Notes under the pieces: model-generated
What the model saw: only the letters and a program-made list of their open reading frames with translations
What the model was told of the DNA's origin: nothing
Databases searched by the model: none
Source: a virus
Virus record (IMG/VR): IMGVR_UViG_3300037780_000016
Coordinates: 1 to 64,000 of that record
Length of the DNA: 64,000 bases
Reading direction: 5' to 3' (one strand)
Shown: in pieces, positions 3,049-52,600 of the stretch
How positions within the stretch are numbered: the stretch's first letter is position 1
Layout: the number at the start of each line of letters is the position of its first letter
Translations under genes and position numbers: made by a program

Positions 3049-3108
3049 TTGACCCTGATGTCCGATGCTGTATTCTAAGAATGTAAGGCAACGGACATCA
3101 AGGGAGAC
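3049..3108 (+). promoter_or_regulatory. early promoter/leader cassette
   Basis: TTGACC-N16-TATTCT-AAGAATGTAAGGCAA...AGGGAGAC. Confidence 0.8.
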
Positions 3109-3888: not shown

Positions 3889-3933
3889 GATGAACCCGGG
3901 TGCAAAAAGTTTCGCATCCGGGTCATTTTTTTG

Positions 3934-7070: not shown

Positions 7071-7247
7071 ATGCACAACCCGCTTCAGATGGCCTACAGC
7101 CTGTCACGGACAGGTGAGCCCGAGCCCGGCGACATCGTGACCCAGCGACAGCCCCGCACCAACGAGAAACGAGATCGCGGCATCATCCGAGAGGAATACC
7201 GTGACCCGGACCAGAACGACCCGTATCGCGGACAGGGGGAAGCCTGA
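7071..7247 (+). CDS. hypothetical protein (58 aa)
   Basis: AGGAGGAG RBS, TGATG coupling to next gene. Confidence 0.55.
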   Translation: MHNPLQMAYSLSRTGEPEPGDIVTQRQPRTNEKRDRGIIREEYRDPDQNDPYRGQGEA

Positions 7248-7684
7248 TGTCTGAGAACCCGAGCATCCGCCGAGCCTGCGAGGAAGTGAAGCGCCGAGTG
7301 GACCGCGCCCTCGAATGGAAAGACGACCGCGAGACCATGGGCATGCTGGAACACTGGCAATCCCACGCCCGGGAGATCATCGCGAACGAGGAGCACCGCT
7401 ATTACGACGACTGCGACGGTTTCGCCCTCACGTCGGCTCAGCTCCTCATGGAGCAGTATGACATCGATCCCGGGGCCGTCCGACTGGTCCTGTGCCTCAC
7501 CCCGGGTGGACATCACGTCTTCTGTGCGGTGGACGATGAGGAGGCCGGTGAGACGTACTGCCTCGACAACAACATGGACCGGGTGGTCTCCCCTGCCCGT
7601 CTACGCCGTGAAGAGTACAAACTGATGAGCTATATGGATTTTGCCCGCAAAGGCGTGTGGCGAGCGATTACGGACGTGGGCTAG
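7247..7684 (+). CDS. transglutaminase-like cysteine peptidase (BTLCP/C93, LapG-like)
   Basis: DCDGFAL...GHHVFCAV...YCLDNN catalytic Cys-His-Asp motifs. Confidence 0.75.
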   Translation: MSENPSIRRACEEVKRRVDRALEWKDDRETMGMLEHWQSHAREIIANEEHRYYDDCDGFALTSAQLLMEQYDIDPGAVRLVLCLTPGGHHVFCAVDDEEAGETYCLDNNMDRVVSPARLRREEYKLMSYMDFARKGVWRAITDVG

Positions 7685-7708
7685 TCTCCCCCTCGACCAC
7701 GTCCGTAG

Positions 7709-7755
7709 GAACCCGGGTGCTGTCTCCCTCCCATGCACCCGGGTTCATTTTTTTC
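7709..7755 (+). terminator. intrinsic terminator built from two palindrome copies
   Basis: GAACCCGGGTGC-loop-GCACCCGGGTTC then ATTTTTTT. Confidence 0.65.
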
Positions 7756-7765
7756 AGGATAGGGG

Positions 7766-7823
7766 TTGTATCATGTCCGTGATCGTGTATTCTAAGAATG
7801 TAAGGACACAGACCAAGGGAGAC
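7766..7823 (+). promoter_or_regulatory. early promoter/leader cassette
   Basis: TTGTAT-N16-TATTCT-AAGAATGTAAGG...AGGGAGAC. Confidence 0.8.
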
Positions 7824-11871: not shown

Positions 11872-11928
11872 TTGACTTCGCCCCCTCCACCCCTTAGTCT
11901 AAGAATGTAAGGCAAGCGCAAGGGAGAC
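11872..11928 (+). promoter_or_regulatory. early promoter/leader cassette
   Basis: TTGACT-N17-TAGTCT-AAGAATGTAAGGCAA...AGGGAGAC. Confidence 0.8.
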
Positions 11929-11932
11929 GCGC

Positions 11933-13864: not shown

Positions 13865-13869
13865 GCCAC

Positions 13870-14212
13870 GGGTCCGAAGTCAGTCCACTCGCCTCTAGGA
13901 CTGAGGGGGACGTAGCAGCCATGGACAATGCTGCATCTGCGACCGAAAAACCATAGGCGCTCGCTGAGCCGGGGCGAGTAATAAGAAACCGGCTAGGAGA
14001 CTAACGACAGGGCGTCTCCGTTTGGTGCCTAACCGCACTGTGGCCATCCCTGTTGGCTCTCACCCGGCGAGCATGTCGGGAGCGACCTTAGCTGGCCCGA
14101 AAGGCCGATGGGTGACTGAGGGAGAGACCTCACCGAGATTTGGGGTATCCGCCGTCGTCACCTGAAGACATAGGCCGGGCGGATGAAAAGAATGGATGCG
14201 TGACTGCCCCAT
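13870..14212 (+). ncRNA. candidate structured non-coding RNA, family unassigned
   Basis: No credible ORF; many complementary stems; directly upstream of tRNA. Confidence 0.45.
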
Positions 14213-14214
14213 AT

Positions 14215-14291
14215 GCACCGGTCGTCTAAATGGTCAGGATACCGCTCTTTCACAGCGGCGATGTTGGGTTCGAGCCCCACCCGGTGTACCA
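14215..14291 (+). tRNA. tRNA-Glu (UUC)
   Basis: Acceptor GCACCGG/CCGGTGT, anticodon arm CCGCT-CTTTCAC-AGCGG, TTCGA T-loop, encoded CCA. Confidence 0.9.
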
Positions 14292-14296
14292 AATTC

Positions 14297-14374
14297 AAGC
14301 CTGTCGTCTAACACGCGATACAGGACACCACTGCGGAGCCGGTGGAGATACGGGTTCAACTCCCGTCGGGCTTG
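14297..14374 (+). tRNA. tRNA-like RNA (Glu-type body, non-canonical 8-nt anticodon loop, no encoded CCA)
   Basis: AAGCCTG/CGGGCTT acceptor, ACGGG-TTCAACT-CCCGT T-arm, CCACT-GCGGAGCC-GGTGG arm. Confidence 0.55.
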
Positions 14375-14383
14375 ATGAAAAAA

Positions 14384-14644
14384 CCTCCCGCGTCCCGCCC
14401 CTTCTGGCGGGCTAGTGGAGGGGAGAGATAGGACGAAGGCCCCACTGCGGAACGGGCTGGACAATCTAAGCGAGGCCGCAGCCTCCCGGGCATAAGGAGC
14501 CTTCAAGCTCTGGACCCCGCTCTCCAAGTCATACCGGGGGTTTGCCTTACACCCTCCCCCGGCTGGTGCGGTACGGCAAGCCCCCCCTGCCCCACGCACC
14601 CTGAGCCCCCTGACTGTCTCCCCATGGTCAGGGGGTTCTTCTTT
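14384..14644 (+). ncRNA. candidate structured sRNA(s), with a segment antisense to the early leader
   Basis: Nested hairpins, possible pseudoknots, loop TTTGCCTTACA, terminal terminator. Confidence 0.45.
14603..14644 (+). terminator. intrinsic terminator
   Basis: GAGCCCCCTGAC-loop-GTCAGGGGGTTC then TTCTTT. Confidence 0.65.
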
Positions 14645-14650
14645 GCGGGG

Positions 14651-14702
14651 TTGACTGGGAATGCTGATATGGTAGTCTCAGTTTGTAAGGCAATGGGAGA
14701 CA
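14651..14702 (+). promoter_or_regulatory. early promoter/leader cassette (variant)
   Basis: TTGACT-N16-TAGTCT-CAGTTTGTAAGGCAATGGGAGAC. Confidence 0.7.
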
Positions 14703-14705
14703 CAC

Positions 14706-15131
14706 ATGGACCTCATCAAAGAAATCGCGCCCATACACGCGGCCAACGACACCGACGACGGGAAGCTGGACATCAAGACGCCCCTGTCGATCCTGTTCCG
14801 TGGCTACCGCGACAAGGTCAGGAGCCGCCGCATCTATGGCACCGAGGAGTACGCCTACTCCGGCAACCGTGACATCAGCGAATGCCTCGACGGTGTCGGC
14901 CTCACCTACATGCTCGAAATGTACGATGGGAAGCGTGTCGGCTGGTGGGTCATCGAAGGGCTCACGGTGGACTACCACAAGGACTACTACGGCGAGGTGG
15001 ACGAGGAGTGGCACTGGACCCGCATGCGCCGGGCCACGATCCCTGAGATCATCCGCTGTCAGATCGGAGCAAAGTGGACAAACCTGCTGGACGACATCAA
15101 GGAAGGGCTGTTCCCATGGGTACTCCGCTGA
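14706..15131 (+). CDS. hypothetical protein
   Basis: Behind cassette. Confidence 0.75.
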   Translation: MDLIKEIAPIHAANDTDDGKLDIKTPLSILFRGYRDKVRSRRIYGTEEYAYSGNRDISECLDGVGLTYMLEMYDGKRVGWWVIEGLTVDYHKDYYGEVDEEWHWTRMRRATIPEIIRCQIGAKWTNLLDDIKEGLFPWVLR

Positions 15132-15451
15132 ACCTGACAGAGCGCTGGCACGAGACCCTGCAACGCATCATGTCCAACGTGGATATCACCGAGGACGGGT
15201 GCTGGCTCTGGAAGGGCGGAACGTCCGGTGATGGTCGTGGTGGCGGATACGCTCGCATGAGCCTCAACGGCTCCACTGTCGCGGTCCATCGCGTCATGTA
15301 TACCCACTTCAACGGGTACATCCCGGGGAAGAAACAAATCGATCACGTCTGCCGCAACCGAGCGTGTGTGAACCCGGCCCATCTGGAAATGGTGAGCCAT
15401 AAGGAAAACCAGAAGCGCCGCGACGCGGCCAGAGAAAGGGCAACGTCATGA
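15116..15451 (+). CDS. HNH endonuclease (HNH_3-type)
   Basis: GCWLWKG...GY...VHRV...IDHVCRNRACVNPAHLEMVSHKEN. Confidence 0.85.
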   Translation: MGTPLNLTERWHETLQRIMSNVDITEDGCWLWKGGTSGDGRGGGYARMSLNGSTVAVHRVMYTHFNGYIPGKKQIDHVCRNRACVNPAHLEMVSHKENQKRRDAARERATS

Positions 15452-16026
15452 TCATCATCGACGATTTCATCTCGACCAAACGCCAAGGGATGCTCCGCAA
15501 CCACCTGATGACGGAGATCGACTGGGAACGCCGAGAGGACGCCCCACGATCCGAATACTGGATGAACGAACTGGGCGAGGATTACACCTACGGCCAAGGT
15601 CGAGGCGTCCGCACCTACGAGCCCCACGAGATGACTGATCTGGTCAAGAACCTGCGTGAGGTGATCAGGCACTACTACCTCGCCGGAGGTTTCCGAGCCC
15701 CGTCTCTGGAAGGGTGCTTCCTGAACATGTATCGCGGTGGCCGCGACTGGCTGGGCTGGCACGCAGACGATGACCCGGGGATCAACCACGAAGACCCGAT
15801 TGCGATCATCACGCTGGGCAACTGCTCTCGGAAGATCGACTGGAAGGTCCAAGGCTCCAAGGGAATGGAAGCGATCAACAGCGCTGTCCTGCACCCGGGT
15901 TCATTGGCCCTCATGCCTGCCGGGATGCAGCAGACGCACTTCCACCGCATCCCCAAGGCCGTGGACCTCCCCGAGGACGCGTGGCGTATCTCTCTCACTT
16001 TCCGCAGCTTGATTGGTCAACAATGA
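15448..16026 (+). CDS. alkB: AlkB-family 2OG-Fe(II) dioxygenase (ALKBH2/3-like)
   Basis: LNMYRGG..LGWHADD (HxD), HRIPK, RISLTFR. Confidence 0.85.
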   Translation: MIIIDDFISTKRQGMLRNHLMTEIDWERREDAPRSEYWMNELGEDYTYGQGRGVRTYEPHEMTDLVKNLREVIRHYYLAGGFRAPSLEGCFLNMYRGGRDWLGWHADDDPGINHEDPIAIITLGNCSRKIDWKVQGSKGMEAINSAVLHPGSLALMPAGMQQTHFHRIPKAVDLPEDAWRISLTFRSLIGQQ

Positions 16027-20087: not shown

Positions 20088-20120
20088 CGAGCCACAGCTC
20101 ACGAACACAACCCCTCTTGC

Positions 20121-20156
20121 GGCCCCTGTCATTCACATGGCGGGGGTCGTTTTTAT
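20121..20156 (+). terminator. intrinsic terminator
   Basis: GGCCCCTGTCAT-TCAC-ATGGCGGGGGTC then GTTTTT. Confidence 0.55.
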
Positions 20157-30413: not shown

Positions 30414-30935
30414 ATGAACCGTAGGGAGGGGTGGTATCTCGCGGGAACGCCTTCGCAGCCGAACGCACCCGGGCTGCAAGAGGGCTCCGTATCCGACGTG
30501 GAAGTCTACATCAACCCGCACACCAACCAGTGTGTGGTCGATTACGCCGCCGTCAATGAGTACGGCGTCGAGGTGACCCGGACGATACGGTCCCGTGGAT
30601 GGACCCCTCCCCCCGCCTCTGTCAGCTCTGCCCATATGCAGATCGAGCAGAATATGGACACCCGCCAACGCCGAGTGACGATTGTCGCCCATGTCGATAT
30701 GGACGAGGATTGCCTGATCAGTCAGTTGGAGCACTACGCCCCGGAACGCGTTCAGCAGCAAATGCAGGCTGCCATGAGCCGGGTGTTCGAAGAACTATTC
30801 CCCACCCCTGCGTATGCGCAGCCTGCGACCATGGTTCCCGAGCCTGACCTCCCTGAAGATGCACCTGTGAACCCGGGTTCACCCACGCCGGATGCCCCCG
30901 CTCCGAGCCGGATGATCGACTTCGACGGGGATTGA
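30414..30935 (+). CDS. hypothetical protein
   Basis: Operon position; ends RMIDFDGD. Confidence 0.7.
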   Translation: MNRREGWYLAGTPSQPNAPGLQEGSVSDVEVYINPHTNQCVVDYAAVNEYGVEVTRTIRSRGWTPPPASVSSAHMQIEQNMDTRQRRVTIVAHVDMDEDCLISQLEHYAPERVQQQMQAAMSRVFEELFPTPAYAQPATMVPEPDLPEDAPVNPGSPTPDAPAPSRMIDFDGD

Positions 30936-49642: not shown

Positions 49643-52600
49643 ATGAAGTCGGAAATCGATCTCTCTGTAGAGTTCCACAAACCCGTAGCTATCGAAGGCG
49701 CTGGCGGTAAGGGCGGCGGTGGCGGAGGCAAGGAAGCCCCCGACAGCCTGCGCTCGAACTCGTCTGGCAAGCTGCAACACATCCTGTCCGAAGGTCCGTG
49801 CGGCGGCATCGAAGGCGGTCTTGAAGGCGTCCATTACAACGAGACGCCGCTGATGGTGGGCTCCCAGAAAAACTTCAAGGGCGTCCTGATGTACGAGAAC
49901 TTTGGCCGGGGCGATCAAGCGTCCATGCCGGGGTTCGACGCAGTCACGAACGTCGTACAGGTTCAGCAGGCCGTGACGCAGGCATCCGGCGGTTACGCCG
50001 TGGCCTTCACGGACGCTCAGGTCACCGCTGTCAAAGTCACGATCTCCACGTCCAGCTTCTTCGAGGCTGACGACAAGGGCAATGTGAACGGCTCCTCCGT
50101 CACCTTCGCTATCGACCTGTCTCTGGGCGGTGGTGCGTTCAATCAGGTTGCCACGGGCACCATCACGGGTAAGACGCGCACGAAGTACGAGCGCGACATC
50201 CGTATCCCGATTGACAGCCCCGGTCAGGTCTCCGTACGCCTTCGCCGCGTCACGGCTGACAGCTCGTCCCTGAAGATCGAAAACACGATCAGCTTCGAGC
50301 GCTATACGCGTGTGATCGAGCATCGCCTGAACTACCCGTTCCTCGCGACGGCTGGCCACATCTTCGACGCCAAGCAGTTCGGCAACCGCATCCCGCAGGT
50401 CCAGTACCGCTTCAAGGGTCGGAAGGTGAAAGTCTTCTCGAACATGGACGGTGCAGCCCGGACGTTCTCCGGCAACTGGGATGGCACGTTCAAGGTGGCT
50501 GAAGAGTGGACCACGTGTCCCGTCCTGATCTTCCGCGATCTGGTCCTGAACAAGCGCTATGGTCTGGGCAAGCATGTCCCGGAAAGCCTGCTCGATGGGC
50601 CGACCCTCTATCAGCTCTCGCAGTTCTGTGCCGAGCTGGTCCCCGATGGTAGCGGTGGGCAGGAACACCGTTTCAGCACCAACGTCGTCCTGAACCGCCG
50701 CTCTGAGGCGTTCAACCTGCTGCAACAGCTCACCGCTGCCTTCCGTTCCATGCTCTTCTGGATGGACGCCAAGCTGTGGCTCCTGTCCGACCAAGATCGC
50801 GACCCGGTCAAGGTGGTGACCAACGCCAATGTGATCGGCGGCAAGTTCACCTATGCGGGCGAGAGCAACAAGCAACGCTACTCCGTCGTCAACGTCTCCT
50901 ACACCCGGGATGACGATTACTTCCGCAAGGGCGTGGAAGTGGTCGAGGACCGTGAGTTGATCAAGGAGCTGGGCTGGAAACCGACCGACCTCGGCACGCT
51001 GGGCGTCTCCTCGCGCGGTCAGGCCCGCCGTCTCGGCCTCTACCTGCTGAACGATCAGGAGCGTGAAGGCGAACTGGTCACCTATCAGGCGTCCTTCGAT
51101 CACCTGCAAGTCGCGGCTGGCGATGGCCCCTCTGGCGTTGCACCCGGTTCACGCATCCTGATCGCGGACAAAGAACGCGGCAACGCTCTGGTGCAAGGCC
51201 GGGCGACCGGCGTGTCTGGCTCTGACATCACGCTGGACCGCGACACGGGCGAGACGGGCACCGGCAACGGCACTCTCTACATGGAGACCGACGAAGGTGT
51301 CATGGAGAGCGTGGCGTGTACCTACACCGGCTCTGTGGTCACCGCGACCGAAGCGTTTACCGGCACCCCGGCGTCGGGCAACCTGTTTATCCTTGTGACC
51401 GGTGTTTCGGTCGCGGAGGAGTTCACGGTCGTCAACGTCACCGAGAAGGACAAGAACACCATTGAGGTGGTCGCCAAGAAGTTCGACAGCACGAAGTGGG
51501 CGCGTATCGACAACGATACCCCGACCGTCGGCCCGGACATCATGCAGCGCCCCTCCCCTGAGTATGTCGAGGCCCCGACGGCTTTCGACGCTCAGATCAA
51601 CTGGGTGACGCACACCGACCACCTCGAAAAGAAACTGGACATCGACTGGACCGACAGCACCGATGAGTTGCTGGACAACTACATGGTCCTGTACCAGCAC
51701 AACAACGGGAACTGGAAGGTTCTCGAAGCGTCCACGTCCACCTCCAACATCATCTTGGAGAAGGCGGAGACGGGCACCTACAATTTCCAGATTTACGCGG
51801 TGAACAGCGCTGGTCGCCAGTCTCTGCCTCTGGAAGGTTCCATCGTGGTCCCGGCGGTCCCGCCGACCGTGGACAACGCCGTGGGCACCGTCTCCAATCT
51901 GGCTCTGGACGAAGGCGGCACCGAGTTCACCGGCCATTCCGCCAAGTTCAACTGGAACGTCAATTCCCCGACCGGCGTGGCAATCCAAGACGAGATCGGT
52001 GGAACGCAGAACACGGGCGCTATCGACCCGAATTTCCGCGACTGTCTGGTCACGGTGAAGCGCACCGACGATACGGTTCTGCGCACCGAGAGCGTCGTGG
52101 GTAACCACTACGTTTATACTTCTGAGAAGAACACCGAAGACAATTTCGAGCTGGACGCCTCGGCCCCGGTCCGTAATTTCAAGGTCGAGGTCCAGTACCG
52201 CGACAAGTTCAACCGGGTATCCACGGCGGAGGTGATCACCGTCAGCAACCCGGCTCCGGCTGCTCCGACCCTGTCCACCGAGACGGTCCCGCGTGGCGTC
52301 ATGCTGACCGCGACGTCCCCGACCGATCTGGACTGGGCGGGTGCTCGCGTCTGGACGAAGGACACGGCCAGCATCAACCCGGCCTCCGACCCGTACACCG
52401 ACTATGGCCGGGTCAACGCCTTCTTCATCCCCGTGAACCCGGGTGCAACGAAATACTTCCGCGTGGCCTTCTTCGACGAGTTCGGCAAGACCACGGGCGA
52501 ACTGAACGTCTCCGCTGAAGGTTCGGCGTCTGTCCCGCTTGTCGGCAATACCGACATCGGCGCTGGCGTCATCGCCATCGACCGGCTGGTGCAGACGGCT

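Follow-up and report, generated by a model that had tools for sequence, protein, structure and literature searches.

The shut-off of early mRNAs in bacteriophages is usually the work of proteins, one example being RegB, a T4 nuclease that acts at GGAG sites. Stable small RNAs are also released from tRNA units, as exemplified by E. coli 3'ETS-leuZ and by two small stable RNAs of the T4 tRNA cluster, which all lie within the 3' trailer of their tRNA unit, extend to the operon terminator and are freed by tRNA processing. The former is a sponge for sRNAs; the T4 RNAs have, to our knowledge, no assigned function, and we know of no case in which either type targets a shared mRNA leader.

In one preprint, the phage sRNAs discussed have as their targets either host genes or a single phage transcript (10.1101/2024.10.31.621285). 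In a summary of the C4 antisense RNA of phages P1 and P7, RNase P cuts an RNA with three stem-loops out of a longer transcript, with one loop partly occluding an RBS and another binding an upstream sequence for specificity (PMC5320573). RNAs of the cuckoo/ar14 family, which includes RSs0680 (CcsR) and is found in Rhizobiales and Rhodobacterales, are built from 2-4 hairpins side by side, variable in their stems and bearing C-rich anti-SD loops; they are sometimes co-transcribed with an upstream gene, and are closed by a terminator-like hairpin (PMC4615179). The sX13 RNA of Xanthomonas, of ~115 nt, is an Hfq-independent molecule with three stable stems and apical C-rich loops, through which it represses mRNAs carrying G-rich RBS motifs (PMC3771888).

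The locus compared with these systems here is encoded by an uncultivated phage whose IMG/VR record comprises 91,687 bp, with direct terminal repeats and 60% G+C; the window, meaning the whole stretch of DNA that was analysed, is its first 64 kb (64,000 nucleotides). The portal, terminase and tape-measure proteins assign the phage to the siphoviruses. Judged by the portal, its closest cultured kin are the Rhizobium phages L338C, P11VFA and RHph_I4, at no more than 46% identity, followed by phages of Rhodobacter and Agrobacterium, and the host is therefore probably an alphaproteobacterium. Rhizobium and Rhodobacter, the hosts of these portal kin, fall in the clades that possess cuckoo sRNAs (PMC4615179).

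A shared 5' box and extended RBS in the early cassettes

The early genes are preceded by cassettes that follow one layout (n = 13): TTGNNN, 16-18 nt, TA(G/T)T(C/A)T, (A/C)AGAAT, GTAAGG(CAA), 1-15 nt, (AA)GGGAGAC, 4-7 nt and ATG. The elements downstream of the promoters are distributed as follows.

3083-3091, + strand: 5' box GTAAGGCAA, one of 11 copies (other starts 3454, 3968, 4886, 8080, 10888, 11907, 14685, 16408, 18694 and 30968)
1036, 1989 and 7800 (starts), + strand: box variants GTAAGGAAG, GTAAGGAAA and GTAAGGACA
3102-3108, + strand: cassette RBS box GGGAGAC, one of 12 copies (other starts 1057, 2011, 3474, 3990, 4905, 7817, 8099, 10903, 11922, 14695 and 16422)

Every sense copy of the box keeps a single register, in which the -10 hexamer of a sigma70-like early promoter is followed by 6 nt and then by GTAAGGCAA. 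The first G of the box is consequently the seventh base past the -10 hexamer, where sigma70 promoters most often start transcription. Given this fixed 6-nt distance, the box is predicted to form the 5' end of the early mRNAs, nt +1 to +9, with the start deduced from spacing only. A fourteenth promoter, at 30932, is of another class, and keeps the box at an equal distance while lacking AGAAT and the cassette RBS.

The 10-nt form of the box, TGTAAGGCAA, has 10 copies on the + strand and one on the - strand (14542-14551), counts that are identical in the window and in the 91,687-bp genome; allowing up to one mismatch gives 15 matches, against 1.2 expected from shuffles. The original prediction had held that an RNA acting through this common leader would explain why the transcribed sequence is so conserved. 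Such an RNA is insufficient alone as an explanation, as the AGAAT just upstream of the predicted start is conserved equally with the box, and a promoter-level constraint must therefore exist besides any RNA. The GAC extension of the cassette RBS appears, from its sequence, to add nothing to pairing with 16S rRNA.

The candidate RNA and its complementarity to the leaders

The single antisense copy of the box lies within a + strand segment of 114 nt (14531-14644), which folds into three hairpins at -56.7 kcal/mol (z = -5.16).

14534-14562, + strand: hairpin 1, a 7-bp G:C stem with the 15-nt loop UUUGCCUUACACCCU, in which 14542-14551 is antisense to TGTAAGGCAA
14565-14600, + strand: hairpin 2, which has a C-rich loop (AGCCCCCCC) and whose 5' side, GGCAAGCCCCC (14575-14585), can alternatively pair with GGGGGUUUGCC, hiding the seed
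14603-14647, + strand: hairpin 3, an intrinsic terminator in which the loop CUCCCC caps a 15-bp stem and a U-rich tail follows; the RBS box GGGAGACA has its complement in UGUCUCCC (14615-14622)

Hairpin 1 is formed as had been described, with the stem CCGGGGG (14534-14540)/CCCCCGG (14556-14562) presenting the loop TTTGCCTTACACCCT (14541-14555), and the exact antisense of the early-cassette box claimed for this loop is confirmed: TTGCCTTACA, at 14542-14551, is the sole antisense copy of TGTAAGGCAA in the genome. Under a first-order Markov model, TTGCCTTACA should occur 0.015 times on the entire + strand and 4e-5 times within the 266-nt non-coding stretch; the complementarity between loop 1 and the box is far beyond chance. 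The loop is predicted to be accessible, with an opening cost of about 0.5 kcal/mol, being mostly unpaired in the ensemble, and still mostly unpaired when the fold takes in either the upstream 156 nt or the downstream leader. Its complementarity begins at the predicted -1/+1 position and stops short of AGAAT, and hence an RNA target fits better than a DNA site.

Net pairing energies were computed assuming a start at the G, and include the opening costs of both partners. When pairing with the leaders was predicted in this way, as had been proposed as a check, loop 1 reached -8.5 to -13.3 kcal/mol with the 11 GUAAGGCAA leaders. Values were weaker for the variant leaders, at -6.8 and -7.9 kcal/mol for the two of the three that were computed (7800 was left out). 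When duplex length was left unrestricted, an energy scan across the genome failed to pick out the leaders, returning artefactual long GC-rich duplexes; scans restricted to the loops were used in its place. In the loop-restricted scan of the whole + strand, cassette leaders account for 10 of the 12 best sites for loop 1, a ranking that partly follows from how the finding was made and that shows there to be few competing off-targets. Two off-target sites score level with the leaders.

The second site of complementarity is in the terminator, a Rho-independent one by its 15-bp stem with 8 G:C pairs and its tail TTCTTCTTT. A complement of the shared RBS exists there, as the original prediction had stated, but the sequence TGTCTCCCCATG (14615-14626) does not form the free 12-nt loop that it had envisaged. 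Rather, only CUCCCC (14618-14623) is left as the loop in the predicted fold, with three weak pairs (U-A, G-U and U-G) closing it, and half of the 8-nt RBS complement (TGTCTCCC) is therefore buried in the terminator stem. Opening this contact costs 3.7-8.1 kcal/mol, and the net energy is -1.7 to -7.1 kcal/mol; pairing of the candidate RNA with the RBS is thus predicted to be weak. With the region at 41% C, an RBS complement is expected 0.009-0.04 times in 114 nt at local composition, making its presence mildly unlikely by itself. The two complementary sites follow one another in identical order in the RNA and in the leader, and so both could be used only as two separate loop contacts.

The alternative stem that had been proposed to hide the seed, GGGGGTTTGCC (14536-14546) with GGCAAGCCCCC, can also be drawn, and the best fold containing it has an energy of -55.6 kcal/mol. 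This lies just 1.1 kcal/mol above the minimum-energy fold, and a two-state RNA is therefore plausible in the energy model, making the suggestion of a switchable RNA thermodynamically tenable.

Other identities for this locus were considered and rejected. An inverted cassette remnant would not account for a - strand with the 10-mer only, and no -10 box, AGAAT or following gene; a small protein gene is contradicted by the absence of any ORF with an RBS; for tmRNA or any other known family of RNA, nothing reached gathering score; and a consensus scan found no promoter of the RNA's own directly upstream of 14531.

A second module with anti-RBS loops

A single-sequence covariance model built on the candidate RNA detected a second element at 7638-7752. 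Its core, at 7668-7754 in the 3' UTR of the ORF at 7247-7684, is made up of a pair of perfect 12-bp hairpins followed by a U7 tail (z = -5.4).

7668-7708, + strand: hairpin A, whose loop GCUAGUCUCCCCCUCGA, on a 12-bp stem, carries the anti-RBS GUCUCCC and holds the stop codon of the ORF at 7247-7684
7709-7754, + strand: hairpin B, a terminator with a U7 tail and the loop UGUCUCCCUCCCAU, its 12-bp stem being made from the repeated GAACCCGGGTGC motif

GUCUCCC is present in both loops of this module. The two terminators have near-identical loops (CUGUCUCCCUCCCAUG in the second module, CUGUCUCCCCAUGG in the candidate RNA) on unrelated stems, a comparison of the covariation type made within one genome; hence the conserved part is the loop, not the helix. 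As the motif recurs in this second terminator (7709-7746), the RBS complement of the candidate RNA is not a chance occurrence. Across the genome, three of the eight + strand copies of GTCTCCC fall in these three loops, and no other strong hairpin carries a C-rich loop. The GUC of all three, in the candidate's terminator and in the two second-module hairpins, matches the GAC extension of the RBS. For the second-module loops, pairing with cassette RBS boxes is predicted at -10 to -13 kcal/mol, and such boxes make up 9 of the 25 top sites. The original prediction of one RNA acting on the whole regulon is probably too narrow in its number, as two modules exist. A second module with two anti-RBS loops, which by its sequence resembles ar14/cuckoo RNAs, raises the prior that these elements are real riboregulators.

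Surroundings and presumed origin of the transcript

The candidate RNA forms the end of an ORF-free stretch of 775 nt, and its surroundings include the following features.

11872-11929, + strand: early cassette promoter and leader, most likely the source of the unit containing the tRNA and the candidate RNA
13865-14214: structured ORF-free region of 350 nt
14215-14291, + strand: tRNA-Glu (UUC), the first gene of the RNA cluster (called by ARAGORN; Rfam tRNA, 48.5 bits)
14297-14374, + strand: tRNA-like element (Rfam tRNA, 35 bits, gathering score 29; not called by ARAGORN)
14375-14530, + strand: structured 5' part of the post-tRNA non-coding RNA, with a purine box (156 nt; no ORF with an RBS)
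14651-14708, + strand: early cassette after the candidate RNA (-35 TTGACT; -10 TAGTCT at 14673-14678; predicted +1 at G14685; box GTAAGGCAA; RBS GGGAGAC at 14695; ATG at 14706)

A consensus scan found no sigma70-like promoter inside the 775-nt stretch, and no + strand terminator between the cassette at 11872 and position 14603. The terminator at 14603 is the only clean intergenic one on the + strand listed by the consensus scan in the first 20 kb; a wider hairpin scan added terminators with larger loops at 1902, 3894, 7709 and 20119. The tRNA-like element has intact acceptor and T arms, oversized D and anticodon loops (with 10-nt inserts) and no encoded CCA. It is likely to be an RNase P/RNase E processing signal, by which the downstream RNA would be released.

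The structured region at 13865-14214, upstream of the tRNAs, has a minimum free energy of -134 kcal/mol and no Rfam match. Two G-rich boxes, GACUGAGGGGGAC (~13899) and GACUGAGGGAGAGACC (~14116), are among the best predicted partners of the second module's C-rich loops. The repeat TGAACCCGGGT(G/T)CA is abundant in this genome, with 16-17 copies per form, and provides both arms of three U-tailed hairpins (1902-1936, 3894-3923 and 7709-7746) situated just 5' of early cassette promoters; part of this repeat family therefore serves as terminator stems. A further + strand terminator-like hairpin, at 20119-20150, is formed by GCGGCCCC and GGGGTCGT followed by TTTTAT. Its loop, UGUCAUUCACAUGGCG, has the UGUC...CAUGG frame in common with the two anti-RBS terminator loops, without their C-run.

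Comparison with described RNA families

No Rfam family reaches its gathering score for either the candidate RNA or the second module. On the model and motif comparisons below, the candidate RNA belongs to none of the cuckoo/ar14, sX13 and C4 families, and works like them at most.

The overall architecture is that of the cuckoo/ar14 RNAs, which have 2-4 hairpins and a terminator: three hairpins lie at 14534-14638 and two at 7668-7746, and the last hairpin of each set is U-tailed. The ar14 model aligns with the second module from end to end (7636-7750), scoring 34.6 bits, below the gathering score of 58.8; the E-value of 2.4e-5 was obtained in a 151-nt search, and is ~0.01 for the whole window. 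The loops of the second module fall at the CCUCCUCCC positions of ar14, whereas the candidate RNA (14380-14660) gave no ar14 match at E <= 10. Every loop in the cuckoo family carries CCUCCUCCC (PMC4615179), in contrast to the loops found here (UUUGCCUUACACCCU, AGCCCCCCC, CUCCCC, GCUAGUCUCCCCCUCGA and UGUCUCCCUCCCAU), which are C-rich and anti-SD-like; in place of the family motif stand GUCUCCCCC, UGUCUCCCUCCC and CUCCCC. Loop 1 of the candidate additionally carries a seed that is not C-rich, UUGCCUUAC, unlike the cuckoo family. Moreover, the cuckoo family is cellular, whereas both modules here are phage-encoded.

The sX13 model matches the candidate RNA weakly over its full length (14530-14643), at 20.2 bits against a gathering score of 50, with E = 0.07-0.26 and many non-canonical pairs. 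This RNA belongs to another lineage and genomic context, and has no counterpart of the loop directed against the 5' box. Other weak full-length matches of the candidate were to Rhizobiales-2, NsiR1 and BjrC80, in which the aligned model loops are C-rich.

Set against this account of C4 (PMC5320573), the candidate RNA is likewise phage-encoded, on the same strand as its putative target and upstream of it, and it is directly preceded by tRNA-type structures. It also offers two sites of contact, of 9-10 nt at the box and 7-8 nt at GGGAGAC(A), the latter partly in a stem. As judged from these sequences, the two-site resemblance shows likeness of mechanism, not membership; the C4 model was absent from the Rfam matches at E <= 10 for 14380-14660 and 7600-7800. 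Whereas C4 serves immunity in a temperate phage through a single downstream operon, the candidate would target ~10-13 dispersed early leaders. The specificity site would be at the very 5' end of the mRNA here, unlike in C4, and the order of the sites and the embedding of the RBS loop in a terminator differ too. By analogy, C4 appears to be the closest known mechanism to the candidate RNA, while in genomic position and presumed release the candidate resembles 3'ETS-leuZ and the RNAs of the T4 tRNA cluster.

A proposed mechanism and its alternatives

The sequences, the folds, the complementarity with its statistics and the paralogous module are the observations from which an interpretation has to start. 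Our preferred reading, to which we give a probability of about 40%, is that the locus encodes a processed, terminator-ended phage sRNA, one of two cuckoo-like modules, that would pair in trans with the 5' end and RBS of early mRNAs. Regarding its transcription, processing, pairing in vivo and direction of effect, we infer the following course of events. The segment 14531-14644 would be the 3' domain of a non-coding RNA transcribed, together with the tRNA-Glu and the tRNA-like element, from an early promoter, probably that of the cassette at 11872. Processing of the tRNA type would then free a stable 3' fragment of roughly 110-270 nt. The two hairpin-modular RNAs with C-rich loops in the early region would resemble the anti-SD elements of the cuckoo/ar14 kind, with their loops retuned to phage signals. 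Loop 1 would confer specificity by pairing with the first 9-10 nt (GUAAGGCAA) of ~10 early mRNAs, and the GUCUCCC loops would pair with the shared extended RBS GGGAGAC, in a two-site logic as in the C4 RNA of P1/P7. Being stable and made by the early regulon itself, the RNA would accumulate and damp the translation of the early mRNAs, perhaps also altering their 5'-end-dependent decay, and thereby act as a delayed negative feedback. The near-isoenergetic alternative fold could meanwhile hide the seed.

A more elaborate scenario is doubtful as a whole: a phage of virulent type would time the shut-off of its early regulon with two retuned cuckoo-type sRNAs made from early transcripts, one of them bistable, positioned at the end of a tRNA cluster and reading both a 5'-terminal 9-nt tag and the extended RBS of about ten dispersed mRNAs, which would be silenced or undergo altered 5'-end-dependent decay. 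If this is true, regulation would be laid out in a new way, with one RNA reading the shared 5'-terminal tag and the RBS of an entire early regulon, and the unusual conservation seen in the transcribed leader would have a reason; it would also mean that anti-SD modules of the cuckoo type can be retuned by a phage to its own signals.

Each of the alternatives accounts for part of these observations. The hairpins might have no regulatory role, serving the termination, 3'-end protection or processing of the tRNA operon and of the upstream gene, while the complementarity came from chance, C-rich composition and terminator duplication. Consistent with this are the 41% C of the region, an RBS complement that taken alone is only mildly unlikely, the sub-threshold Rfam matches, the lack of evidence for conservation and the post hoc nature of the finding. 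Yet the one antisense 10-mer found, where 0.015 were expected genome-wide, sits in an apical loop; the two terminators share a loop and not a stem, whereas simple duplication and drift, or selection for termination only, should leave the reverse pattern; and the genome has no other strong hairpins with C-rich loops. Neither pure chance nor a simple terminator function sits easily with the statistics or with loops that are conserved across unrelated stems, and we consider such an explanation unlikely. It is very unlikely that the box acts at the level of DNA, with TGTAAGGCAA being part of an operator for a protein of the early promoters, and the inverted copy at 14542 an auxiliary site, for instance looping to the promoter 142 bp downstream. 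The conserved block AGAATGTAAGG does span the predicted start, a classical operator position, and the inverted copy lies ~140 bp upstream of the start of the promoter P14651. However, this copy mirrors only the part predicted to be transcribed, omitting AGAAT, which is the best-conserved half; that it falls exactly within the loop of a strong RNA hairpin beside a terminator would be a coincidence; and a single inverted site would have to serve 13 promoters.

The remaining two alternatives grant the hairpins a function as RNA, and each seems to us improbable. The modules, whether captured or convergent, could be cuckoo-like anti-SD mimics that repress host mRNAs with a G-rich RBS, leaving the match between loop 1 and the leaders secondary or incidental. 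The ar14 match, which runs end to end though it is sub-threshold, and the C-rich loops of all five hairpins would suit such a role, as would the use of cuckoo sRNAs by the presumed host clade (PMC4615179) and the action of sX13-type C-rich loops on many G-rich RBS regions (PMC3771888). Nevertheless, this would leave the unique 10-nt antisense box without a reason, and the GUCUCCC of three loops fits the phage-specific GAC extension, not the family motif CCUCCUCCC; a host-directed anti-SD role is compatible with the data, and is not exclusive of other roles. Alternatively, the loops could insulate the next gene in cis: on read-through past the terminators ending at 7746 and 14638, they would pair with the following leader (7800 or 14685), such that only transcripts from that gene's own promoter are translated. 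Both modules do lie 20-50 nt upstream of a cassette promoter, the accessibility of the RBS falls in the read-through context for 8 of the 13 cassettes, and cis anti-RBS pairing is predicted in relatives, as a 13-bp hairpin in one portal relative (G001) and between promoter spacer and RBS in several cassettes of Rhizobium phage L338C. Insulation is harder to square with the minimum-energy fold of the read-through RNA (14531-14760), in which loop 1 stays free and the RBS is taken up by the -10 region, and with other cassette-preceding terminators (1902 and 3894), which have no such loops. Read-through may, in addition, be limited by the terminator-type stems with their U-rich tails (U7 at 7746), and one antisense box against 10 dispersed copies suits action in trans better.

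Searches for relatives and local pairing at other promoters

A blastn search of 14000-15200 against phages returned only matches to the tRNA-Glu. Scans seeded with the protein of the gene downstream of the candidate RNA found nothing among viral or metagenome contigs; the sole homologue of this gene is P0002, encoded on a Logan contig of 6.9 kb and 69% identical. When the leader was used as a search pattern, as a 14-mer and an 18-mer, viral, metagenome and genome collections gave single chance matches only, and a contig scan for multi-copy carriers of the repeat TGAACCCGGGTGCAA, a hallmark of this genome, retrieved none. A portal-profile search recovered kin of no more than 49% identity. The box was absent from five of these portal kin (G001 and G005-G008, of which G008 is Rhizobium phage L338C), which also gave no DNA match to the RNA region; in four of them (G001 and G005-G007), no convincing structural match to the RNA and no tRNA were found. 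Hence the phage, viral-contig, metagenome and genome collections searched yielded no relative with the box or the RNA. When the relatives were searched for an analogous arrangement, in which their own leader box would have an antisense copy in a loop, a cis hairpin was seen in G001 only, and G006 gave nothing convincing.

Local pairing of RBSs recurs in predicted folds of the studied genome. One predicted pairing, in the read-through RNA, joins the RBS of the P14651 cassette (GGGAGAC, 14695) to GUCUC in its own -10 region (14675-14679), and in several other cassettes the promoter spacer or the -10 region likewise pairs with the RBS. In Rhizobium phage vB_RleS_L338C, ~23 promoters share TTGACAAAGGATCGGTTCT (for example at 50652, 69875 and 107178), and their conserved spacer CGGTTCT is complementary to a conserved RBS box, (G)GAGAACCG, ~40 nt downstream, with which it is paired in the folds of several cassettes. 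This pairing may, as modelled, be a cis anti-RBS device for read-through transcripts. Two tandem TTGACA promoters lie on the - strand of G001 at ~15400-15470, and a transcript from the upstream one would hold UCCCUUUCGACCU, forming the 13-bp hairpin with the gene's RBS box AGGUCGAAAGGGA. All the portal kin (G001 and G005-G008) have a frequent palindrome of their own, of the type TGCAAC(N2-3)GTTGCA, with 10-23 copies each. They also have promoters that are conserved in the -35 box and the start of the spacer, whereas in the studied genome the conserved part sits after the -10 box.
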